From contig CAYUZE010000005.1 of assembly GCA_964449585.1 (NCBI GenBank), positions 46,596 through 110,595 on the forward strand: a DNA stretch of 64,000 bases. Reading direction: 5' to 3'. A program made the translations under genes and the position numbers. Every line of letters begins with the position of its first letter. Positions within the stretch are counted from its first letter, which is position 1. Under the pieces are notes generated by a model. The model was not told the origin of the DNA. It saw only the letters and a list, made by a program, of their open reading frames with translations, and did no database searches. Source of the DNA: an uncultured Gammaproteobacteria bacterium. GTDB taxonomy: Bacteria > Patescibacteriota > Microgenomatia > UBA10105 > UBA927. Positions 6,606 through 45,976 of the stretch are shown piece by piece.

Positions 6606-6622
6606 ATGAATCTGAAAGTAGG
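6606..6622 (+). repeat. attL-like direct repeat ATGAATCTGAAAGTAGG (relict ychF 5' end)
   Basis: 15 of 17 nt identical to ATGAACTTGAAAGTAGG at 12741-12757 (current ychF start); TTGG is also shared just upstream in both copies. Confidence 0.6.
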
Positions 6623-6784
6623 AACCCTTGTTACAATGCTCCAACTCTTAAATTAAGATTTTTACTTACAATCCCAGCTCCCAACAGAGGAAGAATAATC
6701 TCTAGTCGTAGTAATTTAGGAAGAATTATAAAAGCTCAGGTCCCAGACTTGACTGCTACGATTTAATGAACTAATCTACTGCTG

Positions 6785-6806
6785 CTGCCCGAAAGGGCCT
6801 TTTTTT
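6785..6806 (+). terminator. Candidate intrinsic terminator (GCCCGAAAGGGC hairpin followed by a T7 run)
   Basis: Perfect 4-bp GC stem with GAAA loop then TTTTTTT, immediately before the first element ORF. Confidence 0.35.
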
Positions 6807-7616
6807 ATGGCATACATCGCGAAAAATAAAGCAGTAATAATTCTGCTATTTATAATTCTTAGTCTCTCTGTTGCAGGATGGTACGCATCTAAGTTACCAC
6901 TTGAATCTACTTCAAAAGATTTTGCTATTACGGTCCTTAATGGTTTTTGGACCGCTTTATTTGCCTTTATTTTCTTAGGGCTTTCATCTATTGCATCAAA
7001 AGTGTTTGGTCGTGAACTAAAACACTATAACTCATTGGTAAATTTAGAGACGCAACTTAACGAAATGATTGGAGTTATTAAGGATAATATCTACGTAATG
7101 AAAGGTTATAAAACAGTTATCCTTAAAGGAAATATTCATTGGGGGAATTTAAGACCGATATTTATTGATAAATCTCATTATGAGAATTTACACGATATCA
7201 ATCTTATAAACAGAGTATTTTCATTCTTTTATCAGGTTAGAAAAATCAATGATGATATGGAAAATTTACAGGCTGGTTACAATGACCTAAAGAATGCATA
7301 TATACAAAAACAGATACGAGTTGAACAATATGTAGAAAATGCTCGAAGGATTTGCGAAGTCCTTGATGATTTGGAAGACTTTTCTGAAGAATTGTTCGAT
7401 GAGCTTTTATCCCTGTTAACCCGTGTTCAAATTCAAATTAGGAAGGAAAAACCACTCACCGCAATTATTAATGAAGCACTCATATATACAACAGGGGATA
7501 AGATTACATTGTCAGAATTTGAAACCGCAAAGAAAAGAATTAAATCGGAACTTGAAACATCGGCTAAAGAATCTGCCGAACAAATCGCCAAGATTCATAA
7601 AAGGAGAAAGAAATGA
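6807..7616 (+). CDS. Membrane-anchored coiled-coil protein (2 N-terminal TM helices; K-rich C-terminus)
   Basis: Hydrophobic segments at about aa 9-27 and 48-68, then a long predicted helical/coiled-coil region; AT-rich codon usage. Confidence 0.45.
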   Translation: MAYIAKNKAVIILLFIILSLSVAGWYASKLPLESTSKDFAITVLNGFWTALFAFIFLGLSSIASKVFGRELKHYNSLVNLETQLNEMIGVIKDNIYVMKGYKTVILKGNIHWGNLRPIFIDKSHYENLHDINLINRVFSFFYQVRKINDDMENLQAGYNDLKNAYIQKQIRVEQYVENARRICEVLDDLEDFSEELFDELLSLLTRVQIQIRKEKPLTAIINEALIYTTGDKITLSEFETAKKRIKSELETSAKESAEQIAKIHKRRKK

Positions 7617-7870
7617 AAAAATATATCTTTATGGTCATGCCGCCACAATTTAATACCTCAGCAGGAGTAGAAGTTGACGAGGTAGAAATTAAAACTCTTA
7701 CTGAAGAAGTTGAGATAATAAGAATCCGTATTATGGCTTCAGAAATTAAGGAAGCATTTGAAAAAGCGAAGCAGGAGTTGTCCCAAATTATTACAGTATC
7801 TTTTGGGCACATGAAGAACTTCGATTACTATGCTTTTAAACTTAGATTAATTGAAGTTGAAAATTTTTAG
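7613..7870 (+). CDS. Small hypothetical protein (85 aa), translationally coupled to upstream gene
   Basis: ATGA start/stop overlap with the upstream ORF at 7613-7616. Confidence 0.4.
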   Translation: MKKYIFMVMPPQFNTSAGVEVDEVEIKTLTEEVEIIRIRIMASEIKEAFEKAKQELSQIITVSFGHMKNFDYYAFKLRLIEVENF

Positions 7871-9186
7871 ACAACAAGCCAATTATGGCTTTCTAAATAG
7901 GCTTTTACGGTATCGGGGTGAGGATGTTCAAATCCAAAAATCCAAAATATTTCGTTTATCAAATTGATAAAGTAATCTTGAAATCGCTTCTTATCATTAA
8001 GTATCGAGGTGTCAAGCTCCAACGGATAATAGTAATGTTGCAATAATCCCATCTTGTCGTCATCAGGAAAAGTTTCTCTCCCTGTTAATACTGGTTTGAT
8101 ATAGATGTCTTCAGTGCTCTTTAATGAGAGACTACCTTTTATTCCACCTTGATACTCAAATAATTTATAAAAGTTTGTTGTAGCTTTCATTACAGCAAAA
8201 GTAAGGGAAATTAGATGCGAAATGTAGATAAATTTATATCCAGTTTCTAAATCCAAATTTAGAACATCTTTTGACAGGCGAACAAAACCCGATGAGTAAA
8301 TCTGTTCATTATGAATTCCTCCGTAATCCTCACGCCAAGAGAACGTCATAACCCCTTCTGGGATTGGTTCCATATTAACTGACGGAAAGTTAATGCGAAA
8401 AGTCCTATCACCATCTCGTATATCAGTTAGTCTTTCTTTTATATCTCGGGGCGTGACAATTGGCGTAGGATAGTAAGGTTGTAAAATCACACTAAAAATA
8501 GAAGCGTTGGACCCGAGTTCTTGTTGGAAAATTTTCGATTGAAATTCTGGTGGAGGTTGATGTTGCGTTAGCGCTTCTTGTCTTGCGCGTTTATAATTTG
8601 CTTTCTCAACTGCAATTTTCTTCTTGCGTTCTATTTCTCCTCTGTGTAAAGCAGCTTCATAGATTTCATTGGATTGTTGTATTTTGAGGTTTCTTAATAT
8701 TTCAGCATTTTCTTTTTTTCTTACGAGTAATTCAGTTGCCTCTGGTGATGCTAAATCAACAGAAGGCGTTATATTTCCTGTTCGGACATATATTTTGGGG
8801 TCATTTTGTACATAGTAGGGAGTTCTATCCCCTTCAAATACTCTTATTAAGATAAAATTTCTTCCATTTACTTCGTTTGTTGGATGCACTTCATACAACG
8901 GAAAGGGAGTTATATTGGAAGCCCACTGATGTATTCTTTCAACGTCTTGAGCATTAACAGGAATGCCAGTCCAAGCAGAGGGGACGCCAGTTGTTCTATT
9001 TTCCTCTACGCCAATAATGATTACGCCCCCTCTAGTATTTGAAAACGCGGCGATAAGTTTGGATAAACCATCCCGAGGCAATTCCTTCTTATAGTCAATT
9101 TGGAGACCTTCTCTTATTCCTTCTTGGCAAAAAGTCTCAATTTTAGCGAAGTCAAATGATTTGATGGGTTTATTGAGGATATCCAT
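7867..9186 (-). CDS. AlbA_2 (Schlafen-like, divergent-AAA/putative DNA-binding) domain protein with uncharacterised C-terminal domain
   Basis: N-terminal motif LSKLIAAFSNTRGGVIIIGVEEN matches the AlbA_2/PF04326 signature (AFANxxGGxIxIGVxD); aa 200-439 lack recognisable motifs. Confidence 0.55.
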   Translation of the reverse strand: MDILNKPIKSFDFAKIETFCQEGIREGLQIDYKKELPRDGLSKLIAAFSNTRGGVIIIGVEENRTTGVPSAWTGIPVNAQDVERIHQWASNITPFPLYEVHPTNEVNGRNFILIRVFEGDRTPYYVQNDPKIYVRTGNITPSVDLASPEATELLVRKKENAEILRNLKIQQSNEIYEAALHRGEIERKKKIAVEKANYKRARQEALTQHQPPPEFQSKIFQQELGSNASIFSVILQPYYPTPIVTPRDIKERLTDIRDGDRTFRINFPSVNMEPIPEGVMTFSWREDYGGIHNEQIYSSGFVRLSKDVLNLDLETGYKFIYISHLISLTFAVMKATTNFYKLFEYQGGIKGSLSLKSTEDIYIKPVLTGRETFPDDDKMGLLQHYYYPLELDTSILNDKKRFQDYFINLINEIFWIFGFEHPHPDTVKAYLESHNWLVV

Positions 9187-9221
9187 GTTATCTGGACGCT
9201 ATTATATACCCTTATTAAATT

Positions 9222-9500
9222 CTAATGAATGAAATAACTCAAAAGGTGTGTAATTATTGGGGCAATAAAGGCGGGTCCAATTATCAAGCCTAATACAAAG
9301 GCTAAGATTAAAAGCTTCCAATTAACAAATAAAAGCACTAGTCCCAGTAGTAAGCAAACAAAGGCATTTATATTTAAAATTGAGATAACAGAAGGACGAT
9401 TGAATAGAGTTGGTCTCTCCGTTACATTAAATTTCCCCCACTTATTTAAGGTAAAACCTCCAAAAGAAAGTAGAAATAGAATTCCCAAAAGATAGTCCAT
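9222..9500 (-). CDS. Small membrane protein (about 3 TM), first gene of the operon with the AlbA_2 protein
   Basis: 92 aa, highly hydrophobic; 35-nt gap to the downstream co-directional AlbA_2 gene. Confidence 0.45.
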   Translation of the reverse strand: MDYLLGILFLLSFGGFTLNKWGKFNVTERPTLFNRPSVISILNINAFVCLLLGLVLLFVNWKLLILAFVLGLIIGPAFIAPIITHLLSYFIH

Positions 9501-9531
9501 ATAAAGAATAAGCTTATTATGAGGCTAAATG

Positions 9532-9546
9532 CACCATCATATGGTG
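9532..9546. promoter_or_regulatory. Perfect palindrome CACCATcatATGGTG in the divergent promoter region (candidate XRE operator)
   Basis: 6-bp inverted arms with 3-bp spacer, 39 nt upstream of the XRE start and upstream of the divergent TM/AlbA_2 operon; adjacent inverted copy of the ATTTAGCCTCA motif at 9520-9530. Confidence 0.45.
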
Positions 9547-9584
9547 TAGATTAGAGGATACACCCAACATACCCTGTATGCAAC

Positions 9585-9800
9585 ATGGCAGGGTACAAAA
9601 TAAACCAGAAACTTGGACAACGAATCCAACGAGCGCGGAAGGGGAAGAAGATATCTCAAGAACAATTTGCCGAAGCTATCGGAGTCCATCGAAATCAAAT
9701 TGGTCGCATTGAGCGAGGGGAAACGAATGTCCCAATGTACACCTTTTATAAAATCGTCAAAGCCCTCAAATTAAAGGCTCGAGATTTACTTCCTTTTTAA
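9585..9800 (+). CDS. XRE-family helix-turn-helix transcriptional regulator
   Basis: 71 aa; LGQRIQRARKGKKISQEQFAEAIGVHRNQIGRIERGETNVPMYTFYKIVKAL is a canonical HTH_3 (Cro/C1) domain. Confidence 0.8.
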   Translation: MAGYKINQKLGQRIQRARKGKKISQEQFAEAIGVHRNQIGRIERGETNVPMYTFYKIVKALKLKARDLLPF

Positions 9801-9876
9801 TGAGTGCGGGAAGGTTTTATATCAAAATATATCAAAGTGATATTAGATATACCGAGGGGCAACCGGCGAATTTACC

Positions 9877-10266
9877 TTAAAGCATTGCTCTCATAAGCAT
9901 GCCTACGGAACGCACAAAGTCATCTAACTTCTCATAGTCTTTATTTACCACCTTCGTAATACCCCTATCTCGAAGTTGCTGATTGTAAGCAGGCATAGAG
10001 GATATTCCAATCACCTTATCTGTCCCAATTTTCTCTAGGTTAATTGTGTGAAAGGAGCCTCCCGCTTTGCAATCGCGGTCTAGGAGCACGATGTCCCAAG
10101 TAATTGATTCGGTTCTATTTACATAGTCTTCTACTTGGGAGTATTCGGAGAGGACGGTAGTAGCTATCTCCACATTACATTCATCCTCAAGAGTACGGAG
10201 AGCCTCCATAAGTTTCGAGAGCGTAGCTAAGTCATCTTCAAGGATAAGTACCCGACAGGTTTTCAT
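9877..10266 (-). CDS. Stand-alone response-regulator receiver (REC/CheY-like) domain protein
   Basis: N-terminal VLILEDD acidic pocket and central IVLLDRDC phospho-acceptor-like Asp in a 129-aa protein with no output domain. Confidence 0.5.
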   Translation of the reverse strand: MKTCRVLILEDDLATLSKLMEALRTLEDECNVEIATTVLSEYSQVEDYVNRTESITWDIVLLDRDCKAGGSFHTINLEKIGTDKVIGISSMPAYNQQLRDRGITKVVNKDYEKLDDFVRSVGMLMRAML

Positions 10267-10671
10267 ATGCCTAGATTGAAGTATAAACGATTCTTAATAG
10301 ATGGGGGGCTGGACAGGAAAACTATACACATTGATAGCCCGATGAAATGAGTAACCGCGTGCCTTGGTTTGTAAAAATTATAAGGTATTTGAAAAGTGAC
10401 ACATTTCAACTATAGAGCGTCCTGATGCACTAAATACCAGTTGACAGGGTGACAATAGAAATTATTCAATGGGCTTGTCTTAAGGGACTACCGTTAGGGC
10501 TTAGAAGACGTTAAAGAAACGAAGCGATAACGGCGACCGAAGCAAAGCAAACGAAACCTATACAGATAAACAGTTAAGACACCTCAGCCGCACCGGCTAG
10601 GAAAATCTGGCAGGGAGAGTGAAGCCAAGCGAGGGAGATGTATTTCTGAGTTATGGAGGGAGAAAAAAACG

Positions 10672-10863
10672 ATGAAAAAGTTACAAAGTGACACTGTAAG
10701 CACAAAACAGGTGCGAATTGACGCTGAGTGGGTAAATGCTCTGGCTTATCTCCGAGCAGACCTCCACGTGTCAATGAAGAGCCTTGTAGAGGAAGCTCTA
10801 AGCAAGTGCTATGCATTGAATTCAGAAGGGAAACCTTATCGAATTGAGAAAGCGTCAGATTAA
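10672..10863 (+). CDS. Small ribbon-helix-helix-like protein (possible CopG/antitoxin-like)
   Basis: 63 aa; VRIDAEWVNALAYL resembles an RHH beta-strand/helix start; weak. Confidence 0.3.
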   Translation: MKKLQSDTVSTKQVRIDAEWVNALAYLRADLHVSMKSLVEEALSKCYALNSEGKPYRIEKASD

Positions 10864-11140
10864 AGCTTGGTATCGAACATTTATCATTTCCATTTTCATT
10901 ATGAACATCAATAGCTATTTAACCGTCATAAGCGGAAGAACCAAATTGACCCTGTATGAATTCGATACGTATAAAAAAACGACGCAGTCCGACGATTGTA
11001 TTTCGCTATATGGTGGATGCGGGTGGAGCCACGCCTATCAAACGGATGTATAGCCGTATATTTGAGTTAGCGTATGAGCGAGTTATAGAGCGTAGGAATA
11101 AGATAAGTACTTAACAAAGTATAATGGAATAAGGGAAAAT

Positions 11141-12799
11141 ATGGGTGAACCATTCCAACCAACTAGTAGTGATAAAGTTCCACGAAAAGCAGCAATATAC
11201 GCTCGTGTTTCTACTGAAAATCAGGAGAAGCAACAAACAATAGACTCTCAGATTGATGAGGTCAAAAGGCGAATAGAGGTAGATGGAAACACCTTGACCG
11301 AGGAGAATATCTATATTGATGAAGGCTGGTCAGGGATGCTTTTGGCAAGACCTGCGTTAGACCAGTTACGTGATGCCGTTTCATCTAAGCGGTTCGATAT
11401 GGTGTACGTATATGACCTCGGGAGGCTATCGAGAGATTTTACCAACCAGCTTGTATTAATTAAGGAGATTGAAGATTCGGGGGTAAAGGTTGTTTCTTTG
11501 CATGACATTAACCCAGAAAACGATGAGCAAGGGTTTATAAGAAATATCTTGGGTAGCTTCCATGAGTATGAAAGAGTCAAAATCGCCGACCGCATGCGCA
11601 GAGGCAAACTTTATAAAGCAAGAAATGGCAACATTATCAACGGAAATGCGATTTATGGCTACTCGTATATTAAGAAAAGCGGCGATATACCCGCATCATG
11701 GGTAATAAACGAGCAAGAGGCAAAAGTCGTAAGGATGATATGGCAATGGGTAGGGGAGGAAGGAGAGTCAATTCGGGGTGTTATAAAAAGGCTTTACGAT
11801 ATGGGTATTACTCCTCGCAAACAAAAACGTCCCATTTGGACAAAGGGACCAATTGTACGAATACTCCAATGTAATACATATGTGACCGGCAAAGCCCATT
11901 ACAACAAGTCAGAAGCTACTATCGCAAAACGTCCTAGGAACAGCGACCGATACAAAAAGGTTAAGAGAACGAGTAGAAAAGTGCGACCGGTAGAAGAATG
12001 GATACCATTCGACGTTCCGATAATCATTCAGGATTTGGCGTTATATGAAAAAGTACAGAAAATATTCGAGCTTAACAAGAAATATGCAAATAAGAAAAGT
12101 AAGGGAAAGTATTTATTTACGGGAAGGATATTTTGCCAATGCGGAAGCCGTATGAACGGTGACGGGTGCAATAAATATGGTCACTTCTACTACCGGTGTA
12201 CGAGTAGAATCCACAAATTTCCTCTAGATACGTCTTGTAAGGCTGGTGGTGTGAATGCGAAGCTATTGGATACGTTGCTTTGGAATGCTCTTAAGAAACA
12301 AATTAGCGATAGCGTGCTTCTCCGGCAATATGCGGAGGAATGGCTTGAATCAAAGCAAAAGCATCTCGATATCTCAGAGGAGGTTGAGAGATTGCAAAGC
12401 ACGCTTAACAGCCTTTCTCAGGAAGAAGAGAGATATGCAAAGGCATATGGGGCAGGTTCACTAGATTTAAGTTTATTCACTAACCTTATTAAAAATATAC
12501 GAAGCCAAAAGACCGATGTTCAGGAAAAGATGTGTGGCATCATGGCTACCCATACGAGCGACATATCTCCAGTGGAAGTTGATGAGCTCGTAAAAGAATC
12601 GTTGGAAGTAATTGAAAAGTTAGATTGGGATAACAAAATTGCCACAGTTCGCGATATAATAGAGCGCGTTATTGTCAGAGAACAAACTGGAGTAGAGGTG
12701 TTCGTACATTTACCTATGCCATCTACCCAAAAGTTGGATTATGAACTTGAAAGTAGGCATCGTCGGGCTTCCCAATGCAGGGAAATCCACCTTATTTAA
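11141..12799 (+). CDS. Large serine recombinase (resolvase N-terminal domain plus recombinase domain plus Zn-ribbon/coiled-coil)
   Basis: AIYARVSTENQ catalytic Ser motif, then YDLGRLSRDF; Cys cluster CQCGSRMNGDGC...YYRC typical of large serine integrases; 552 aa. Confidence 0.85.
   Translation: MGEPFQPTSSDKVPRKAAIYARVSTENQEKQQTIDSQIDEVKRRIEVDGNTLTEENIYIDEGWSGMLLARPALDQLRDAVSSKRFDMVYVYDLGRLSRDFTNQLVLIKEIEDSGVKVVSLHDINPENDEQGFIRNILGSFHEYERVKIADRMRRGKLYKARNGNIINGNAIYGYSYIKKSGDIPASWVINEQEAKVVRMIWQWVGEEGESIRGVIKRLYDMGITPRKQKRPIWTKGPIVRILQCNTYVTGKAHYNKSEATIAKRPRNSDRYKKVKRTSRKVRPVEEWIPFDVPIIIQDLALYEKVQKIFELNKKYANKKSKGKYLFTGRIFCQCGSRMNGDGCNKYGHFYYRCTSRIHKFPLDTSCKAGGVNAKLLDTLLWNALKKQISDSVLLRQYAEEWLESKQKHLDISEEVERLQSTLNSLSQEEERYAKAYGAGSLDLSLFTNLIKNIRSQKTDVQEKMCGIMATHTSDISPVEVDELVKESLEVIEKLDWDNKIATVRDIIERVIVREQTGVEVFVHLPMPSTQKLDYELESRHRRASQCREIHLI
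12741..12757 (+). repeat. attR-like direct repeat ATGAACTTGAAAGTAGG (current ychF start)
   Basis: Partner of the 6606-6622 repeat. Confidence 0.6.
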
Positions 12800-37860: not shown

Positions 37861-38709
37861 ATGAAACGGTTTATCACCTCCATCAGCGAAACGATCATGA
37901 AACGCTATAAGCGGTGGGAGCGTACCCAACCGTTCAGCAAGCGGCAACAGTTTGTCGGCATTACGGGTATTTTGACGATTCTTCTGATGTTGACACAGCT
38001 TATGCCGTTGGATTTCCGTTATCCCATGGTCGGGGCACTGTTTGTCATCAGCTATCTGCTTTGCGCGTTTGCGCTCCGTGATGATCTGCGAGGAGCAGAG
38101 TGGGGAACACTCCTGATCCTCCCTTCGTTTTTCACCGCAGCGGTGGCGGTGTTTTACTTTCTCCTTCCCACTCGCTGGTTGACCCGGCTACCCATTGCCG
38201 TATTGTATGCGGTGGGTATGTATGCGTTGCTTCTCACGGAAAACATTTATAATGTCGCTGCGGCAAGGACAATCGCCCTACTGCGGGCGGCACACTCGGT
38301 CGGCTTCCTTCTTACACTGGCGACGTATTTTCTTTTGGTGCAAACGGTACTTGCGTATCGGTTTTATGGATGGGTAAATGCGCCGCTTATCGGACTGGTT
38401 ACGTATCCGTTGACGCTGCAAATTCTTTGGGCGATAAATCTGGAGCCTGCGGTGGGGAAGAGGGTACGGGAACTTACCCGTATTATCACCCTTGTTCTGT
38501 TTGAACTTGCCTGGATATGTTCATTGCTTCCCGTACGGACGACATTACTGGCGCTTTTCTTGACGGCCTGTTTTTACGGGCTGGCGGGGATGGGGCAACA
38601 GTATTTGGCGGATCGGCTCTATAAGCGCACCGTGTGGGAGTTCTTCGGGGTGGTCGCCATAGTCGGTCTTATTTTGCTTGTCACGTTAAATTGGCGGACC
38701 GCGGTATAA
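37861..38709 (+). CDS. Polytopic membrane protein, hypothetical
   Basis: 282 aa, about 7 hydrophobic segments. Confidence 0.4.
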   Translation: MKRFITSISETIMKRYKRWERTQPFSKRQQFVGITGILTILLMLTQLMPLDFRYPMVGALFVISYLLCAFALRDDLRGAEWGTLLILPSFFTAAVAVFYFLLPTRWLTRLPIAVLYAVGMYALLLTENIYNVAAARTIALLRAAHSVGFLLTLATYFLLVQTVLAYRFYGWVNAPLIGLVTYPLTLQILWAINLEPAVGKRVRELTRIITLVLFELAWICSLLPVRTTLLALFLTACFYGLAGMGQQYLADRLYKRTVWEFFGVVAIVGLILLVTLNWRTAV

Positions 38710-38766
38710 ATGCGCAACGTTTGGATTATTTCTTCGGTACCGTCGTTACCTCATTGGCACAAAGGT

Positions 38767-38819
38767 GGGAGAGTGGGAGAGTGATATAGTCTGATATAGT
38801 TGATATAGTTTGATATGGG
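38767..38819. repeat. Iteron-like tandem repeats: GGGAGAGT x2 then GATATAGT x3 plus GATATGGG at 9-10-nt periodicity
   Basis: Read directly from the sequence: gggagagtgggagagtgatatagtctgatatagttgatatagtttgatatggg. Confidence 0.7.
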
Positions 38820-39084
38820 TAGGGAAAACTATAGGGTACAATGTGGATAATTAATTTCACGGGGTATACGCACTGTTTTCACGATGCCCTGATAGCCTCG
38901 ATTTAGCCTCAACAGAATGGAAAACTATAGGGTAGAGCTGTGCCATTCTGTTCCGGGGAATGCCAGGCATATCGTGTGCTCCCTTCCTCTCCCTTGAGTA
39001 CACAAAGTGTGCGATAAAACATCGATTTGGATTGTTGTGACGCTCTAAATGCGACTATCTACCGCGTTACCGGAGGAGCGAAAG

Positions 39085-39425
39085 TAGCCTCAAAAAAGTG
39101 AGTTTAGCGCGTATTGATGGGCTAAATAAAACCGAAAACGTGAAGTGCTAGCAGGAGTCACCCGTGGAGCGCTAAGCTATGTGTTTTTATTTGCCTGCTC
39201 ACGAAAGAATGAGAATTGTAAGGCTAAAGTCGCATATATGGAGCGTCAATACGCTCTGTTCTATCATTGCTGGGAAGTTATTTTAATCGAGTATTTAGCC
39301 TCAGTAAATATCGTTTGGAGCGTATTAATGCGCTAAATAGCGACATGTCATGGGTACCGGATGCGCATAGGGCAGGGAGTTTAGCCTCAAAATATTGCAT
39401 TTGGAGCGTATTAATGCGCTAAATA
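39085..39425. repeat. Three copies of a roughly 45-nt element (TATTTAGCCTCA-N-TTGGAGCGTATTAATGCGCTAAATA) with terminal inverted repeat TATTTAGC/GCTAAATA and an internal palindrome
   Basis: Copies at about 39085-39128 (degenerate), 39296-39339 and 39382-39425; the last two are nearly identical over about 25 nt. Confidence 0.65.
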
Positions 39426-39984
39426 ATTTTCACAATAAAAAACCCGAACGCCCATTTTTTGCCTGTTTATTCGCCATACAATCGGGAAGAAATGTTCAAT
39501 CGATCCGCAGCGCATGGAATAGCCACGACGCGTATGCGGAAGAGAGGTGGCTTAGGACCTATCTCCCTCGGTGTGGGAGTGCTGATAAAAACTGCCCCTG
39601 GCTCTGGGGCAATTTTGGCGGTTTCCCTGCCCGGGGGAAGAACTTGCTATGTAGTCGCACAATAATACTTTTGCGACGTTACGAAAAAGACCCTGCCCGG
39701 AGAAGTGGTTTATCCGACCGTATTGTCGTTCCATTGTTTTTGTCATTTGGTTTGTACAAACGGATGCACATTGCGGCAAATATTTCGTATATATTCCCCG
39801 GTTTGTCCGACGGCTATTTTTTGTCCGATATTTTTTACGGTCGTCGGCGCCATCGTCCGTATTTTGCCCGGTTATCCCGTCAAAACGCGCTAACCTGTTT
39901 TCTGTCGGATACATGAGATGATCGCTCATACGTCTTTCGTAAATCAGGGGCCTTCTAGGTCATTACAGGGGCTCAAATTTGAGG

Positions 39985-40683
39985 CTATTTTTGATGAAAC
40001 CGATAGGTGCCAAAAACCCTGGTTTTCGACGGGTGTGCACCCGCGTTTGTGGTAATAAGCGATACTTCATTTGCAGTAATGTTCCCAAACGGCATGTCGG
40101 TATATGCGGTAAGTTGTTCAAGAAATTTCTGTTGCGGCGTATGGGTATATCGGCAGATGGTGATATTGGCAAATACCATTTCATCGGTAAAATAGGTTTT
40201 GTCATCGGGCACGCCGGTTACGACAAGTTGGTGCCGCAAGGTGCGTACGAACGCATCATACCGAGGCTCGATGAGTGCGATAACGGAAATACTCGTCGGC
40301 ATGCTGAGTATGCCGAACAAGGGAAAAGAAAACGGTTCATAAGCCGGTACGACGGCGCCAATTGCCGTATCTGCCTTGGTGATATCAGCCGAAGTAAAAT
40401 GCGGCGGATTGTTGATCACGCGAACGTTTTGAATTGTCAAATGCAGACTGTCGCGGTTGTAATAGTAAAAATTCGGCTCAATGGTTTGGAGCGTTTTGAT
40501 AATCTTTTCGTAGATAACAGTTGCAACATCTTTGCCGACGAACGATACTGCCGTCAGACATAACTGCGGATCGTTCGCATAATCCGTTTGCATCGGAACG
40601 ATGGTTGAGGAAGTGCTTCCGCGGGAAAGGGATGACTCCATTTGGCGCATCAAAACAAGCTGTCTTTTCTGGTATGAGGTCAT
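39985..40683 (-). CDS. Hypothetical protein, possibly 2H-phosphoesterase (LigT-like) with degenerate second HxT motif
   Basis: Single HLTI motif (SLHLTIQNV); second expected HxT/S replaced by NITI; weak assignment. Confidence 0.3.
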   Translation of the reverse strand: MTSYQKRQLVLMRQMESSLSRGSTSSTIVPMQTDYANDPQLCLTAVSFVGKDVATVIYEKIIKTLQTIEPNFYYYNRDSLHLTIQNVRVINNPPHFTSADITKADTAIGAVVPAYEPFSFPLFGILSMPTSISVIALIEPRYDAFVRTLRHQLVVTGVPDDKTYFTDEMVFANITICRYTHTPQQKFLEQLTAYTDMPFGNITANEVSLITTNAGAHPSKTRVFGTYRFHQK

Positions 40684-40744
40684 GAAAATATTCTACCATA
40701 TTGACATGACTCTGATGTCGTACAATTATAGATTGTAACGACGT

Positions 40745-41698
40745 ATGGATATTGATGCGCTTATTAAAGACTTTCTGGAATACCTAGAAATTGAGCGAAA
40801 TGTTTCGCGACTTACCATTCGCAACTATTCGCATTATTTGGGGCGTTTTTTTCACTTTTTGACCGGTCCCCGCGACCCCTCCTCCCCTCCCCTGTCCGTG
40901 AAAATCGTGAAAATTTCGGAGATCAATCCGGAAAATATTCGGCAATACCGTTTGTATTTGGCGCGATTTGTCGATGAAAAAGGCATGAGTCTCAAACGCG
41001 TCACGCAAAATTATCACCTCATTGCATTACGCAGTTTCCTCAAGTATCTGGCAAAACGCGATATTGCTACCGTCTCGCCGGATAAAATCGACCTTCCGAA
41101 GGCGGAAAGTCGTTCTATCAAATTTTTGGAACACAACGACATGGAGCGTCTCCTCAATATGCCCGATATGAATACCAAAGAAGGAGTGCGGGACAAAGCG
41201 ATGCTTGAAGTGCTTTTTTCGACGGGGCTCCGCGTCTCCGAATTGGTGAGTCTCAACCGTGATCAGATCAATCTTGATCGACGTGAATTTAGCGTCATCG
41301 GAAAAGGTAGACGCACGCGCATCGTCTTTTTGTCGGAACGGGCGGCAGAATGGTTACGCAAATATCTTGCTACCCGCGAAGACGATCTTCGGCCGGTCTT
41401 TATCCGGTATAGCGGCAAGACGCCCGACGAACACGATACAACGGGAGAATCGGTGCGGCTAACCTCCCGTTCCGTACAACGATGCGTCGAAAAATACGTC
41501 AAGAAAGCAAAGCTGCTGGTCAAAATTACCCCGCACGGACTGCGGCATACGTTTGCCACCGATTTGTTGGGCAACGGCGCCGATCTCCGGGCGATCCAGG
41601 AGTTATTGGGGCATAAAAACGTCTCCACTACCCAAATCTATACGCATATCACCAATCCGCAGCTGAAGGAAATTCACGACAAATTTCATAGCAAATGA
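40745..41698 (+). CDS. xerC: Tyrosine site-specific recombinase, XerC/XerD-like
   Basis: N-terminal SAM-like core-binding domain; catalytic box HGLRHTFAT...LLGHKNVSTTQIYTH with catalytic Tyr. Confidence 0.85.
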   Translation: MDIDALIKDFLEYLEIERNVSRLTIRNYSHYLGRFFHFLTGPRDPSSPPLSVKIVKISEINPENIRQYRLYLARFVDEKGMSLKRVTQNYHLIALRSFLKYLAKRDIATVSPDKIDLPKAESRSIKFLEHNDMERLLNMPDMNTKEGVRDKAMLEVLFSTGLRVSELVSLNRDQINLDRREFSVIGKGRRTRIVFLSERAAEWLRKYLATREDDLRPVFIRYSGKTPDEHDTTGESVRLTSRSVQRCVEKYVKKAKLLVKITPHGLRHTFATDLLGNGADLRAIQELLGHKNVSTTQIYTHITNPQLKEIHDKFHSK

Positions 41699-42732
41699 CC
41701 CAAAAAACAAATCTCTCAGGGCTTCGGGTAACGGTCTTGTACAATAAGCCTTCTGCCAGATTTTCCCGTGACGCGACGCATGTGGTAGCCGAAGAGGACA
41801 CTGAGGAATCGGCACACGAAATAGCCGAAGCGCTCAAGCGAAAAGGCATGGTTCCCATGCTTGCGCCGATTACCGAACATACCAGCCGTACAGTGATCGA
41901 AAATCTTCCCGATGATTTAGTATTCAATCTTATCGAGTGGACTGGCATTGACACGCCGTACGCGATCAAGGCATATGAGTACATGCACGCGAGGAATCTT
42001 TTTTATACCGGAGCAGCCCTTGATACGTATTTGCTTTCCTGCGATAAATCGGTGATGAAAGCGCGGCTTGATGAAGAACACCTTCCCACGGCTCGGTGGC
42101 AGCTTTTTAAAACGGGTGAGGAAACGGTACGCGAGGATTTTCATTACCCCTTAATCGTCAAAGTCAGCAGCGAACATTCCAGCGTGGGACTGACGAAAGA
42201 AGCGGTCGTACGAAATGTCGCTGAAGTAAAAACGATGGTGAAGAAACGGCTTGCCGAATACCGCCAACCGGTATATATAGAGGAGTTCCTGACGGGACGT
42301 GAATTTCAGGTGACGTTACTTGAGCGCGAAGGCGGGCTCGCCGTACTGCCGATTTCGGAAGTGCAATACACGAAAACAACCGATGTGCCGTTTTTGACCT
42401 ACAACAGCAGGTGGGATGCGACGCATCACGACTATGATAATTCACGGGTGCTGCTGGCAAAGCTGACCCCTGATATGGCAAAGAAAATGCACGACATGAG
42501 TGTGAGGGCATTTCGTACGTTCGGCTACCGTGATTATGCCCGCTTTGATGTACGATGCAACGGTGACGAACCGATGTTCCTGGAGATAAACTCCAACCCG
42601 GGGTTAAGCGATGATGAAGAATACGGTATGACCGTTTCCTACAAGGCGGTCGGCATGACATTTGCCGATGTCGTAGAAGCAATCGTCCGTTCGGCGCTCC
42701 GGCGCAAAAAGGGCATCACGGCTACGGGATAA
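41695..42732 (+). CDS. ddl: D-alanine--D-alanine ligase family ATP-grasp enzyme
   Basis: ATP-grasp motifs (YPLIVKVSSEHSSVGLTK, EEFLTGREFQVTLL, FLEINSNPGLS). Confidence 0.7.
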   Translation: MTQKTNLSGLRVTVLYNKPSARFSRDATHVVAEEDTEESAHEIAEALKRKGMVPMLAPITEHTSRTVIENLPDDLVFNLIEWTGIDTPYAIKAYEYMHARNLFYTGAALDTYLLSCDKSVMKARLDEEHLPTARWQLFKTGEETVREDFHYPLIVKVSSEHSSVGLTKEAVVRNVAEVKTMVKKRLAEYRQPVYIEEFLTGREFQVTLLEREGGLAVLPISEVQYTKTTDVPFLTYNSRWDATHHDYDNSRVLLAKLTPDMAKKMHDMSVRAFRTFGYRDYARFDVRCNGDEPMFLEINSNPGLSDDEEYGMTVSYKAVGMTFADVVEAIVRSALRRKKGITATG

Positions 42733-43315
42733 ATACCCGTGCGGTCTCGGTGCGGAAGTACGGGAGGGATTCCGGATCACGGGCGACCACCATCATTAGT
42801 TGCGGCTGCCATTTTCTGATGAGGCGAAATTTTTTACCGTTTTTTTTCAGTTTTTTCCGCTTATAGTCAAAGTCCCACCATCGCGCGCGAAAATCACTCC
42901 AGTCATAGGACTTTCGTTTCCCGGTCGCACTATCAAAAAGGACAATCCGTGACTTGCTGGAAAGATACGAGGCGACCATTGCCCAGTGTCCGCTCTCTTC
43001 CTGCGGACGATATTTATCATCCAAATCGTAGAGGTAGGATACGATTACCGCCCGTTGTTCTTTCGGACGATATTTGAGCGCACTCTGCAAATGTTGGAGC
43101 GTCGCGTACTCCATGACCATGACACAGAGGCCGAGTTTGTTTGCGGCTTCTATCATGTGTTTTGTAGAGGTGCCGTTCCTTCCCGTTTTGCAGAGGGTGA
43201 TCAAACGTTTCATGGAAACGCGAAGACCCAAATATTCCGCAACATGCTTAAGCGACGTCGGGCCGCAGGTTATGTCGTCGGGTTGTTGGATTGGTTTGAT
43301 GTTTTTTCTACCCAT
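42722..43315 (-). CDS. Stand-alone C39-family (papain-like) cysteine peptidase domain protein
   Basis: Q...ITCGPTSL Cys motif and downstream SGHWAMV His motif in C39-like spacing; no fused ABC transporter. Confidence 0.45.
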   Translation of the reverse strand: MGRKNIKPIQQPDDITCGPTSLKHVAEYLGLRVSMKRLITLCKTGRNGTSTKHMIEAANKLGLCVMVMEYATLQHLQSALKYRPKEQRAVIVSYLYDLDDKYRPQEESGHWAMVASYLSSKSRIVLFDSATGKRKSYDWSDFRARWWDFDYKRKKLKKNGKKFRLIRKWQPQLMMVVARDPESLPYFRTETARVFIP

Positions 43316-43489
43316 AGTAATGAATATGCCGACGATATAAAAAAACGAGAGTGTCCTTGCGGAGCGAAATCCTGCGCCGCAGGACGTTTCGAATAACCAT
43401 TTTACCCCGCCGAAAAATCGCCATCAAGACCTATAGTTGGTCAATTGACAGTTTGAAGCTAATCCCGCAGGCGTGCGGGTTGCCTGAGG

Positions 43490-44227
43490 TTACTGGATCT
43501 CGTAGCTTACGCTCACGTTCACCGAAAGCTCGGATGTACCGGGTTCCACTTCGGTAGGCGCCCCGCCGCCGGAAATCGGCATGGCTTTTTCCGCGGTATC
43601 GTACATCATCGGTCTTGGGGCGGCACCGTTTCCCTCACTGTAATTGATGACGCGGCCGAGCGTAAATCCTGCTGCCTTTGCCGCGGCTTCCGCTTTTGCT
43701 TTGGCATCGGCAACCGCCGCTTCGCGAGCCTGGTTTTCAGCTTTTGTTTTGTCATCAACGTCAAAACTCACGCCGCCGACTTCATTTGCACCTTCGCGGG
43801 TGGCGGCATCGATAACGCTGTTTGCCGTGTCGATCTTCCGTACTTTGACGGTAAGATTCGAGCTTGCCTGATAGCCGGTTATCCGTTGCGAGCTTGCGGA
43901 ATAGTCATACATCGGAGAGATGTGATAGTAACTTGTCTTGATATCTTTCGCATCCACCCCAAGCTTTTTCACCGCACTACTAATCGCGTTCATTTTTGTA
44001 TTGAGTTCGTCTTGCACTTTGGTAACGGTTGCTCCCTGTGCGGACACGCCCAACGAAACAACGGCAACATCGGGAATCATCGTCACTTTTCCCTCGCCGT
44101 GTACGGTAAAGGTATCGGTCTTGGTGGTCGTGACGCTGTTTATGGAAAACGGGAGGGGTCCCGCGAGTTTTGTATAGGCAAACAGCATAATGAAGAAAAG
44201 AACGATTGCGCCGGATATATCTTTCAT
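43490..44227 (-). CDS. SIMPL-domain (DUF541/YggE-like) protein
   Basis: N-terminal TM anchor then SIMPL-like domain; Ala/Lys-rich segment; start set at MKDISG. Confidence 0.6.
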   Translation of the reverse strand: MKDISGAIVLFFIMLFAYTKLAGPLPFSINSVTTTKTDTFTVHGEGKVTMIPDVAVVSLGVSAQGATVTKVQDELNTKMNAISSAVKKLGVDAKDIKTSYYHISPMYDYSASSQRITGYQASSNLTVKVRKIDTANSVIDAATREGANEVGGVSFDVDDKTKAENQAREAAVADAKAKAEAAAKAAGFTLGRVINYSEGNGAAPRPMMYDTAEKAMPISGGGAPTEVEPGTSELSVNVSVSYEIQ

Positions 44228-45093
44228 ACGGTACCTCCTTGCTGTATAGTACATGCTTTTACGAGATTTTGCATAAGACATGCGACGTTGACCGGTCCGA
44301 CCCCTCCGGGGGTCGGCGTATAGTGGGATGCAACGGATGCAATATCCGCTTCATCATAATCCCCCCGAAGCTTCCCCTCGGTATCCCGCCAAATCCCGAC
44401 GCTGATAAGGATCGCTCCTTTTCGCACCGCCGGGGCGGAAACGACCGCCTGTTTTCCGACGCAGGAAATGATGATTTCGGAAGAAGCGAGCACTTCGTTC
44501 GGATCAGGGGTTTGTGAATGGATTATAGACGTCGCACAATCATGCTTTTCGAAATAGCGGCGGATGGGCTCCCCTGCCGTTTCTCCTCTGCCGATAATGG
44601 TGATTTTTTTCGTACGAAGCCACTGCCAAATCGCCTCTTCAGTAACAGCGATTTCTAAAGTTTCCTTGGCAACAACCGCAAGTATCTCCCCTACCGCAAG
44701 GGCGACGGGTACTTCATACGGACTACCGGGGAGAAACCCGTCAATATCTTTTTCTGCACGGATCTTTTTTAACACATCGGCAACACCTCCCACCTCGGTG
44801 GGGATAGGCCGTTGGACGATAAGACCGTGAACCGCGTTATCTTTATTGAACCGGTTGATCAGATTGTAGAGTCCGCCTGAGGTAAGGGACGGAGGGTGTT
44901 GTTCAAAAATGACACGGGCACCTATTCGTTCAGCCGCTTTTTGCTTTTGTTTAATGTAGGCAAGACTTGCCGGGTCATCTCCTACGAGAATGACGGCAAG
45001 AGTGGGCATGCTCCCCTGCTTTGTGAGGACGTTACCCTCTTGGGTAAGTTCGGTGAGGATTCGGTCAGCGATGAGTTTTCCGTCGATACGCAT
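44224..45093 (-). CDS. folD: Bifunctional methylenetetrahydrofolate dehydrogenase/cyclohydrolase
   Basis: MRIDGKLIA N-terminus, YxxxK active site region, Rossmann GxGxxxG (IIGRGETAG). Confidence 0.85.
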   Translation of the reverse strand: MRIDGKLIADRILTELTQEGNVLTKQGSMPTLAVILVGDDPASLAYIKQKQKAAERIGARVIFEQHPPSLTSGGLYNLINRFNKDNAVHGLIVQRPIPTEVGGVADVLKKIRAEKDIDGFLPGSPYEVPVALAVGEILAVVAKETLEIAVTEEAIWQWLRTKKITIIGRGETAGEPIRRYFEKHDCATSIIHSQTPDPNEVLASSEIIISCVGKQAVVSAPAVRKGAILISVGIWRDTEGKLRGDYDEADIASVASHYTPTPGGVGPVNVACLMQNLVKACTIQQGGTV

Positions 45094-45976
45094 ACAGGCG
45101 TTCAGCCAGTGCCGACCAGTTGAGTTCAGGGAGCACCATGGCAGTGATAATCAGTATACCGCCAAGCATTGCGGGAAGCGAGGGGGTGGTTTTAAACATG
45201 ACGGCATCAAACAGCAAGACAAACACAATTTCACTCAACATAACAAGGCTTCCCAATTGCGCGTCCAATTTGCGAAAACCGTGGATAACAAGGAGGGCGG
45301 TGAGGATAAAAATAACGCCGATAAGCAAACTGGCTCCTTGGGCAGATGACACTTCGGTAATCGGCCAAGGTTCTTTCATTGCGTATGAAATCGCCATAAA
45401 GAGCGGTACCGCCAATGCGTTATCAAGAAAAGTAAGTTGGATTGCAGGATAGTCCGTAATTTTTTTTGAGGAGATTCCCCAAAACGACGAGGATACTCCC
45501 GAAAGGAATGCTAACAGTACAAAGAACGGTCCGTGGAGCGATACGCCGACGCCGTACACCAGAAGCAATCCCAAAAGCGCCAATCCCAATGATACCCATC
45601 GAAGCGGCGTCGTTTTTTCTCCGAACATGATCGCGCCCAGGGCAAATCCCGCAACCGTCATTCCGCCGTAAAAAATAAAATACGAGAGGCTGACGGGTAA
45701 CACGTTTACCGTCACAAAAAACAAAATAAACGATGTACTTCCCGCGAGCATCCGGAGCACAATCCAAAGCCATGCGGTTTTTTTAATCGGCAACCATGTT
45801 TTGTAGCTCCATACGATTAGAAGCGCCGCCAAAAGATATTTTGTCCAGCTCTGATAAAACAACGGCAGCGAGTAGCCGATGAATTTTGATATGAACCCAA
45901 CGGTCGCATACAAAAATGTCGCGCCGATAAGGCTGGCCATACCGCTGATATGGTTTTTTGTTATTGCGCGTTTCAT
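45065..45976 (-). CDS. EamA/DMT-superfamily transporter
   Basis: 10-TM duplicated EamA architecture. Confidence 0.55.
   Translation of the reverse strand: MKRAITKNHISGMASLIGATFLYATVGFISKFIGYSLPLFYQSWTKYLLAALLIVWSYKTWLPIKKTAWLWIVLRMLAGSTSFILFFVTVNVLPVSLSYFIFYGGMTVAGFALGAIMFGEKTTPLRWVSLGLALLGLLLVYGVGVSLHGPFFVLLAFLSGVSSSFWGISSKKITDYPAIQLTFLDNALAVPLFMAISYAMKEPWPITEVSSAQGASLLIGVIFILTALLVIHGFRKLDAQLGSLVMLSEIVFVLLFDAVMFKTTPSLPAMLGGILIITAMVLPELNWSALAERLYAYRRKTHR

Follow-up and report, generated by a model that had tools for sequence, protein, structure and literature searches.

The DNA analyzed here, referred to as the window, is a stretch of 64,000 nucleotides (nt) of contig CAYUZE010000005.1 (positions 46,596 to 110,595), from an uncultured bacterium of the Patescibacteriota lineage. 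It contains two noncoding regions which a first-pass annotation had linked on the basis of short sequence words occurring in both: region B (38,710–39,990, the end being approximate), a gene-free locus upstream of a xerC-like gene, and region A (10267–10671), which lies in a mobile island. On balance it is probable that the two are unrelated and have in common a few AT-rich words and one possibly real overlap, region B being a conserved noncoding locus that would specify a modular RNA and region A the control region of the island.

Region B measures about 1.25 kb and is unannotated, no open reading frame (ORF) with a Pfam domain being present from 38710 to approximately 39990. It is preceded by a gene for a DUF5656 protein (37861–38709) and followed by an ORF of 232 amino acids (AA) on the minus strand (39985–40683), the xerC-like gene and ddl. 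The 232-AA ORF is conserved beside the noncoding locus in most relatives and has no match in Pfam, NCBIfam or the PDB sequences. Within region B a 46-nt repeat is present in three good copies. Screening against Rfam 15 at E ≤ 1 revealed no match in 38600–40800 or 9400–11200, while at gathering thresholds the whole window yielded tRNA only; in 7 relatives the sole sub-threshold match was to a eukaryotic long noncoding RNA model (E 0.079), outside the locus. No gene family matched B in the window or in 7 relatives, and the literature on DUF5656 and on noncoding RNAs of Patescibacteria held nothing relevant and no paper on this locus.

Related loci were recovered by two routes, with a DNA pattern in which the flanking blocks were not required and through homologs of the DUF5656 protein. 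The pattern was a 22-mer found in both regions (GAGCGT..T.ATGC.CTAAATA, at 10415, 39318 and 39404, with agreement at 18 of 22 positions) and was written to include the A variant. Scanning of genome (596 Gb) and metagenome collections gave 35 loci, near the chance number (~17 expected for the genome collection alone, by our own arithmetic). Fourteen of the 35 are B-type loci with the same synteny, and they carry features for which the pattern had not asked: further units in the vicinity and, upstream, TTTAGC[CT]TCA at a distance of 14 nt as well as TGTGGATAA-N4-TTTCACG-N15-TTTCACG. Outside the B-type loci the search for further copies, which the first-pass annotation had proposed, returned mostly single matches inside long ORFs of unrelated bacteria, at chance level, L027 and L029 being ambiguous. 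The protein route, independent of the DNA pattern, gave L037, L039, L041, L043, L048 and L050, all with one gene order: TGT ... YebC, DUF5656, ~1.1–1.3 kb without a conserved gene, the 232-AA ORF, XerC and Ddl. The source names of the homologous proteins are those of Patescibacteria, including Gottesmanbacteria, and DUF5656 identity falls to ~60% across the relatives, with greater divergence in the pattern-derived loci.

All 17 related B-type loci recovered, some of them partial contigs only, share one order of sequence blocks and follow DUF5656; xerC and ddl come next wherever the contig extends. Units recognized by a covariance model are confined to one syntenic locus in each of ~17 loci. 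All the words noted in B fall in conserved blocks of an old locus of the chromosome. B is vertically conserved rather than a mobile repeat, and is neither dispersed nor Xer-specific. The view of A and B as two copies of a single small element, mobile or RNA, is not sustained, there being no extended homology and no dispersal of the units, and nothing specific to Xer was found that would link the island to the Xer-adjacent locus.

The repeated unit has the layout TTTAGCCTCA-N14-TTTAGAGCGT-N4-ACGCTCTAAA, in which TTTAGCCTCA is termed box A, and 4–6 units are present per locus. Their spacing is irregular (75–135 nt), with variable linkers and a conserved unit. Across the alignment the units are preceded, in order, by a purine-rich block, GATATAGTTTGATAYAG, one to three CTATAG-centred motifs, a TGTGGATAA-TTTCACG leader, a TTTAGCCTCA doublet and CTCCCTTGAGTACACAAWGTGTGCGATAAA, and are followed by AAAAACCCGAA, the hairpin GTCGCACAATAATACTTTTGCGAC and CTAGGTCATTACAGGGGCT...TGAGGCTA. 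The purine-rich and GATATAGTTTGATA blocks stand directly 3' of the DUF5656 stop codon in 17 of 17 related loci. In distant loci the reverse complement of the AAAACTATAGG core, CCTATAGT(TTT), occurs one to three times. The word GGAAAACTATAGG of the first-pass annotation falls in these CTATAG-centred motifs and has the opposite orientation in distant loci; the presence of the motif in either orientation suggests that it is recognized as DNA. Every related locus keeps a sequence that fits the DnaA-box consensus perfectly (TGTGGATAA at 38842–38850, the reverse complement of TTATCCACA), with two parS-like TTTCACG half-sites, 22 nt apart, on its 3' side. The segment 38892–38934 includes the words TGATAGCCTCGAT and ATTTAGCCTCA, and the word TGATAGCCTCGATTTAGCCTCA lies in the box doublet. 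The form of unit 1, TTTRGATTGT...ACGCTCTAAA, is found again at the unit-1 position of related loci, and in the downstream ATGTAGTCGCACAATAATACTTTTGCGACGT hairpin the fifth stem pair is variously C-G, T-A, T·G and C·A across loci.

Two classes of repeat array were considered for these units and rejected. A dispersed repeat of the REP/MITE type was set aside, the units standing in one locus per genome and other pattern matches being mostly chance singletons. An integron attC array was likewise dismissed: the arms are TTTAGAGCGT / ACGCTCTAAA, the units lie 75–135 nt apart with no ORFs between them, and the xerC-like gene stands next to ddl.

The unit hairpin possesses 10 pairs and a 4-nt loop, and across 28 units 84.6% of the cells are paired, versus 28–53% with the partner column slid. 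Pair 6-19 is A-U (13) or C-G (6), pairs 4-21, 8-17 and 9-16 use G·U, and the covariation score of the hairpin lies above 494 of 500 shuffles and all slid controls. Among 49 distinct units G·U occurs 47 times versus 22 A·C mismatches, an excess that favors the plus strand as RNA. For 38842–39445 the folding energy is −181.9 kcal/mol (z = −3.76) on the plus strand and −150.2 kcal/mol (z = −1.40) on the minus strand. Compensatory pairs and strand-specific folding, the marks by which a structured RNA is recognized, are both present in B, which probably encodes a plus-strand RNA built from repeated hairpins.

Several observations weigh against such an RNA. The G·U counts are not phylogenetically independent, and neither strand of the 3' half (39440–39990) shows a folding signal. 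The sequence TTGATA-N17-19-TATAGT, a promoter of the sigma-70 type, can be fitted to 7 of 17 loci, none of them in the window's own subclade, and no convincing terminator was found for the B locus. Moreover, CTATAG occurs in both orientations and the hairpins are near-palindromic, which leaves room for an array of protein sites at the DNA level. According to this alternative B would work as DNA, as a palindromic array for a nucleoid-associated, partition-like or recombination-accessory protein with a DnaA-box-like site. The hairpins, read as 24-bp near-palindromes, would suit such an array, but the asymmetric arm of unit 1 is conserved and pairs only as plus-strand RNA. The CTATAG motifs in either orientation and the conservation of the perfect TGTGGATAA and the two TTTCACG half-sites also speak for DNA sites; the excess of G·U over A·C and a plus strand that folds 32 kcal/mol better than the minus strand do not. 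Finally, the related element in region A occupies an apparently untranscribed promoter spacer and its best-scoring strand flips between the window and L047, whereas in B a single-stranded-looking box stands at a fixed 14 nt before each hairpin. We regard the DNA array as less likely than not, yet as a serious rival.

If B does specify an RNA, at least its first ~600 nt would be transcribed from the plus strand into a modular structured molecule. The purine-rich block, GATATAGTTTGATA, the CTATAG palindromes and TGTGGATAA-TTTCACG-TTTCACG would form a regulatory head, and each module would be a box in single-stranded form, TTTAGCCTCA with an A-rich run after it, and then the 10-bp hairpin TTTAGAGCGT-N4-ACGCTCTAAA. 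The repeated box-plus-hairpin layout suggests that the RNA may bind one partner, a protein or other target, in multiple copies and in the manner of a sponge RNA, as judged solely from the anatomy of the locus.

The conserved DnaA-box sequence and the adjoining xerC gene bring to mind a chromosomal replication origin, or a terminus/dif region for the adjacent Xer recombinase. The AT-rich T-runs at 39730–39850 and an inverted repeat of the 11+6+11 type at 40714–40746 would be in keeping with this, but GC skew remains positive from one end of the window to the other and has no extremum at 39 kb, genes neither diverge nor converge at the locus (window, L048 and L050), the DnaA box is single, and dnaA and dnaN are not nearby. 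We consider either role extremely improbable. An oriC has a cluster of DnaA boxes at the GC-skew minimum, with genes diverging from it, and dif is one site of 28–31 bp, with two ~11-bp arms around a 6–8-bp centre, at the skew maximum. As an oriC candidate B was rejected on its single DnaA-box match, a skew that is positive on both sides and left-hand genes that point towards the locus; as a dif/Xer site it was rejected on hairpins in 4–6 direct copies and the lack of a skew maximum.

The inverted repeat at 40714–40746, GATGTCGTACAAT-TATAGA-TTGTAACGACGT, overlaps the xerC start codon and has an 11+6+11 arrangement reminiscent of dif-type sites. The B-locus hairpin at 39650–39681 is similar to its left arm and right end. 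Since GTCGYACAAT is also present at 44531 and, in related loci, ahead of other genes, the repeat may instead be a lineage-specific promoter motif.

Region A belongs to the element integrated in ychF. The 17-nt direct repeat ATGAAyyTGAAAGTAGG is present at 6606–6622 and 12741–12757, the second copy being the first codons of ychF, and the element forms a GC trough (GC 0.32–0.43). Its large serine recombinase gene (11141–12799) specifies resolvase (PF00239), recombinase (PF07508) and zinc-ribbon (PF13408) domains. The recombinase ORF runs across the right repeat, so that ychF now starts inside island-derived sequence. In L045 the same element is likewise located in ychF. By the domains of its recombinase and its junction repeats in a host gene, 6606–12757 is a large-serine-recombinase integrative element. 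Region A, a 405-nt spacer between a 129-AA gene transcribed leftward and a small ORF transcribed rightward, is the predicted divergent-promoter control region of this element. In the comparison with L047 (69% protein identity) an operator-like palindrome, the 22-mer region and TTGACA stand in a row, and there the corresponding promoter faces a Phage_rep_O gene.

A second operator-like palindrome, CACCATCATATGGTG, lies at 9532–9546, just upstream of an XRE-family gene (9585–9800). Among the island cargo is a 439-AA protein (7867–9186, minus strand) that has a Schlafen/AlbA_2 domain, and L046 shows the same neighborhood again (XRE gene, 92-AA and 439-AA genes). The gene context differs in P0150, another relative of the island. 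No protein common to the island and the neighbors of B was found. Scans of viral contigs with the 22-mer, the operator and the island's 129-AA protein gave nothing, and a 15-base palindrome pattern gave 34 matches in viral contigs, estimated to be at chance level.

The words listed in the first-pass annotation are all in the sequence, within 1–2 bases of the form and position given for them. GGAAAACTATA occurs at 10316, 38823 and 38919 and nowhere else in the window. TGATAGCC is present at 10332 and 38890; CGAT joins CC directly in the A copy (TGATAGCCCGAT) and the B copy has TCGAT (TGATAGCCTCGAT). GGGAGAGTG is found at 10613, 38767 and 38775, and the exact 11-mer ATTTAGCCTCA at 9520 (minus strand), 38901 and 39293, with its 10-mer core additionally at 39380 and the 8-mer TAGCCTCA at 39085. 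That chance was unlikely for so many words is not borne out. Comparison of A with B by blastn gave best E-values of 0.036–0.26, and against the whole window the 22-mer match had E = 3.8, no better than several unrelated matches. Twelve distinct 9-mers are common to A and B, versus 4.7 ± 2.7 for other parts of the window (top 1.5%); both regions, it should be noted, are AT-rich and noncoding. With segments within 4% of A's GC content as the null, the fraction reaching A's count was 0.026, and 0.15 after masking 34 bases around the palindrome at 10411–10436. Against the B-type loci of 13 other genomes the fraction was 0.12–0.14, and 0.35–0.62 with the palindrome masked. Word sharing is thus ordinary for the GC content, and average once the palindrome is masked.

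Neither blastn nor nhmmer detected extended homology between A and B, or between A and 13 other B-type loci. When these 13 loci were used against A as whole-locus profiles and as single sequences, only a palindrome of ~30 nt was found (E 0.25–2.3). In the island relatives L046 and L047 the homologous stretches lack GGAAAACTATA, TGATAGCC-CGAT, GGGAGAGTG and TGAGGCTAAAT. Of the five words in common, four are a matter of chance and composition.

The alignment that the first-pass annotation had called for is not significant for the two regions. One element, 10411–10436, does exceed chance and composition. In this imperfect palindrome 8 of 10 stem positions pair, and the half-site TAGAGCGT / ...CTAAA is an arm of the B hairpins. 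A first hidden Markov model (HMM), with pattern-selected seeds, gave the A site E = 1.7e-5 and was discarded as circular because its pattern was derived from A. The HMM was rebuilt on 12 hairpins, all from other genomes and none a match to the pattern, and in the window it detected B units and a single outside site, 10412–10435 (11.9 bits, E = 0.017). One of 300 simulated 64-kb windows (third-order Markov) and none of 1000 simulated islands reached 11.9 bits. A covariance model, R1, built on 24 units from loci found only via the protein, scored 10411–10436 at 20.2 bits (E ~0.008), genuine units spanning 18–35 bits. At the homologous position of L047, in a 278-nt region, R1 scored 22.4 bits on the other strand; this site reads AATAGATTGTTAGGACGCTCTAATGT, close to the unit-1 form of the family, and its non-shared arm fits the unit-1 arm. 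In ~334 kb searched with all filters off, four R1 matches of ≥19 bits lay outside B-type loci and pattern-picked sites, namely the A site and the nearly identical L045 copy of it, the L047 site, and an ORF match at 40639. By score and hairpin the palindrome goes with the B family; it lacks box A and lies outside the syntenic locus, in the mobile island 28 kb from B.

The palindrome might also be an ordinary operator of the island, with a half-site that resembles the B arm purely by coincidence, and to this we assign somewhat less than an even chance. The non-significant alignments, the ordinary GC-matched word sharing and the absence of extended homology all fit a coincidence, and further points against a true kinship lie in the palindrome itself. 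Box A (TTTAGCCTCA) is missing 14 nt upstream, where the sequence is AAAGTGACAC; the 3' arm is not the same in L047 as in the window, and the best-scoring strand in L047 is the opposite one; and the A and L047 sites are not independent because they descend from one ancestral site. R1 also gave an equally high match (19.9 bits) at 40639–40664 (minus strand), in coding sequence at the 5' end of the 232-AA ORF. This match is not kept in relatives and is probably a false positive, and it indicates that the E-values of R1 may be optimistic. Pattern-matching 22-mers in unrelated genomes score 10–27 bits with the same models; they do so by construction and are for that reason uninformative as a null at pattern sites. 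Against coincidence, models from other genomes rank the A site first or joint-first outside B in the 64 kb, only 1 of 300 simulated windows attains its score, the homologous 278-nt region of L047 matches as well and with a unit-1-like non-shared arm, and ~270 kb of further sequence holds no other match of ≥19 bits.

Much broader was the proposal of the first-pass annotation, namely several kinds of site for one factor, or copies of one element, tying the island to the Xer-adjacent locus. AAAACTATA, the GATAGCC-CGA form of box A and the hairpin do stand on one strand inside A, in a span of 120 nt, but only the hairpin survives testing, the other words being missing in L046 and L047. Moreover, A is average once the hairpin is masked and does not present the block order of B, each genome has its B units in a single syntenic locus, and xerC, beside ddl, is conserved and of the housekeeping type, not part of a mobile unit. 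We hold this broader proposal to be very unlikely and largely refuted. Binding sites for the same factor remain conceivable for 10411–10436, on the evidence of the HMM, the simulation, R1 and L047, and are unsupported for the other four words.

The palindrome lies between the operator and the −35 box, apparently in an untranscribed spacer of divergent promoters. It most likely represents a duplex DNA site at which a dimeric regulator would bind; its position in the spacer and the strand flip between relatives make this the simplest reading. There is about an even chance that one host factor recognizes both the palindrome and the B hairpins. A more elaborate scheme, with a small chance of being correct, is that B encodes a so far undescribed RNA, widespread among Patescibacteria, whose 4–6 modules titrate a dimeric regulator that binds nucleic acid, and that integrative elements place a matching palindrome by the −35 box of an early or replication promoter, by which their activity would be coupled to the level of the host regulator or RNA.

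For the original finding the value of these results is mainly negative, five words having been reduced to one testable element of 26 nt and the link between island and Xer having fallen away. More interesting is a by-product, a noncoding locus of Patescibacteria that is deeply conserved and unannotated. The genomes of these bacteria are ~1 Mb in size and contain very little noncoding DNA; for this reason a 1.25-kb stretch free of genes that has kept its place even among distant members is likely to matter. To our knowledge almost no regulatory RNAs have been described in Patescibacteria. If it is an RNA, B would add a large modular noncoding RNA to this group and would be a target for transcriptomics and pull-downs. 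The features of both regions are collected in Table 1.

Table 1. Sequence features of region B, region A and the integrated element
Feature	Positions	Strand	Remarks
Start of locus B: purine-rich GGTGGGAGAGTGGGAGAGTG, then TGATATAG repeats	38764–38816	+	GGTGGGAGAGTGGGAGAGTG includes GGGAGAGTG twice; repeats fit family block GATATAGTTTGATAYAG
First GGAAAACTATAGGGTA copy	38823–38838	+	Core AAAACTATAGG kept in the window's subclade
Leader ATGTGGATAA-N4-TTTCACG-N15-TTTTCACG	38841–38883	+	Relative position constant; present in every related locus
Box A doublet (ATAGCCTCGA, then TTTAGCCTCA) and second GGAAAACTATAGGGTA	38892–38934	+	Kept in L039, L041 and L043
Block CTCCCTTGAGTACACAAAGTGTGCGATAAA	38989–39019	+	5' of unit 1; nearly invariant in L039, L041, L043, L048 and L050, recognizable in L019
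Hairpin unit 1, TTTGGATTGTTGTGACGCTCTAAATG	39026–39051	+	R1 29.4 bits
Unit 2: box A AGTAGCCTCA, 10 bases, hairpin TTTAGCGCGTATTGATGGGCTAAATA	39083–39128	+	R1 32.0 bits
Unit 3, degenerate hairpin TATGGAGCGTCAATACGCTCTGTTCT	39237–39262	+	R1 18.3 bits on the plus strand, 24.1 bits on the minus strand
Unit 4: TTTAGCCTCA, 10 bases, hairpin TTTGGAGCGTATTAATGCGCTAAATA	39294–39339	+	R1 34.9 bits
Unit 5, layout as unit 4	39380–39425	+	R1 34.9 bits
Motif AATAAAAAACCCGAAC	39434–39449	+	3' of the last unit; AAAAACCCGAA after the last hairpin in nearly all related loci
Hairpin ATGTAGTCGCACAATAATACTTTTGCGACGT	39650–39681	+	Highly conserved; 6-bp stem, 12-nt loop
3' end block GGGGCCTTCTAGGTCATTACAGGGGCTCAAATTTGAGGCTA	39947–39990	+	Ends in an inverted box A overlapping the stop codon of the convergent 232-AA ORF
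Imperfect palindrome TATAGAGCGT-CCTG-ATGCACTAAATA	10411–10436	+	Sole element of region A resembling B hairpins in independent tests
Operator-like palindrome TTTGAAAAGTGACACATTTCAA (TTTGAAAAGTGNCACATTTCAA)	10388–10409		Directly upstream of 10411–10436; L047 form TTTGAAAAGTGTCACATTTCAA
TTGACA, −35-like hexamer	10441–10446	+	Putative rightward promoter; conserved in L047
Words GGAAAACTATA and TGATAGCCCGAT	10316–10343	+	Resemblance to B at chance level; missing in the homologous stretches of L046 and L047
Integrated element with region A	6606–12757	+	6.1 kb; 17-nt direct repeats; inside the 5' end of ychF

Two of the related loci permit a closer comparison with the window. L030 (WBZO01008787.1) is 78% identical to positions 39404–45940, and its contig ends exactly inside hairpin unit 5, which is consistent with an assembly break at an internal repeat. 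L037, from a second sample of the same species, differs from the window at 56 positions in 12.6 kb, every substitution falling within 39761–41048 (the 232-AA ORF and the start of xerC) with none on either side; this segment looks like a recombination tract, to judge from the distribution of the differences.

Among known systems, region B recalls the sponge RNAs CsrB/RsmZ and CrcZ, with which it shares a single noncoding locus and 4–6 repeats of a single-stranded motif plus a hairpin at irregular spacings of 75–135 nt. B is without GGA or CA motifs, belongs to another taxon and has no Rfam match, and a sponge function would be putative; we know of no CsrA, Hfq or Crc partner for it. The large RNAs OLE, GOLLD, ROOL, HEARO and raiA resemble B as long gene-free stretches of small genomes with conserved blocks, covarying hairpins and fixed synteny. 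B differs from them in having no Rfam match at E ≤ 1, in its internal tandem modules and in a folding signal confined to the 5' ~600 nt. With REP/MITE and attC arrays B has in common repeated imperfect hairpins beside a tyrosine recombinase gene, but its units occupy one locus in fixed order, with no GTTRRRY/RYYYAAC core, cassettes, terminal repeats or target duplications. Region A, in turn, may be compared with control regions of the lambda type. Its operators are putative, and it would be unusual there for one palindrome to carry the half-site of a hairpin from a host noncoding locus. As in those regions, it lies between divergent genes beside an XRE-family repressor gene, with the palindromes 10388–10409 and 10411–10436 next to a −35 box, and in L047 the same promoter faces the replication gene.

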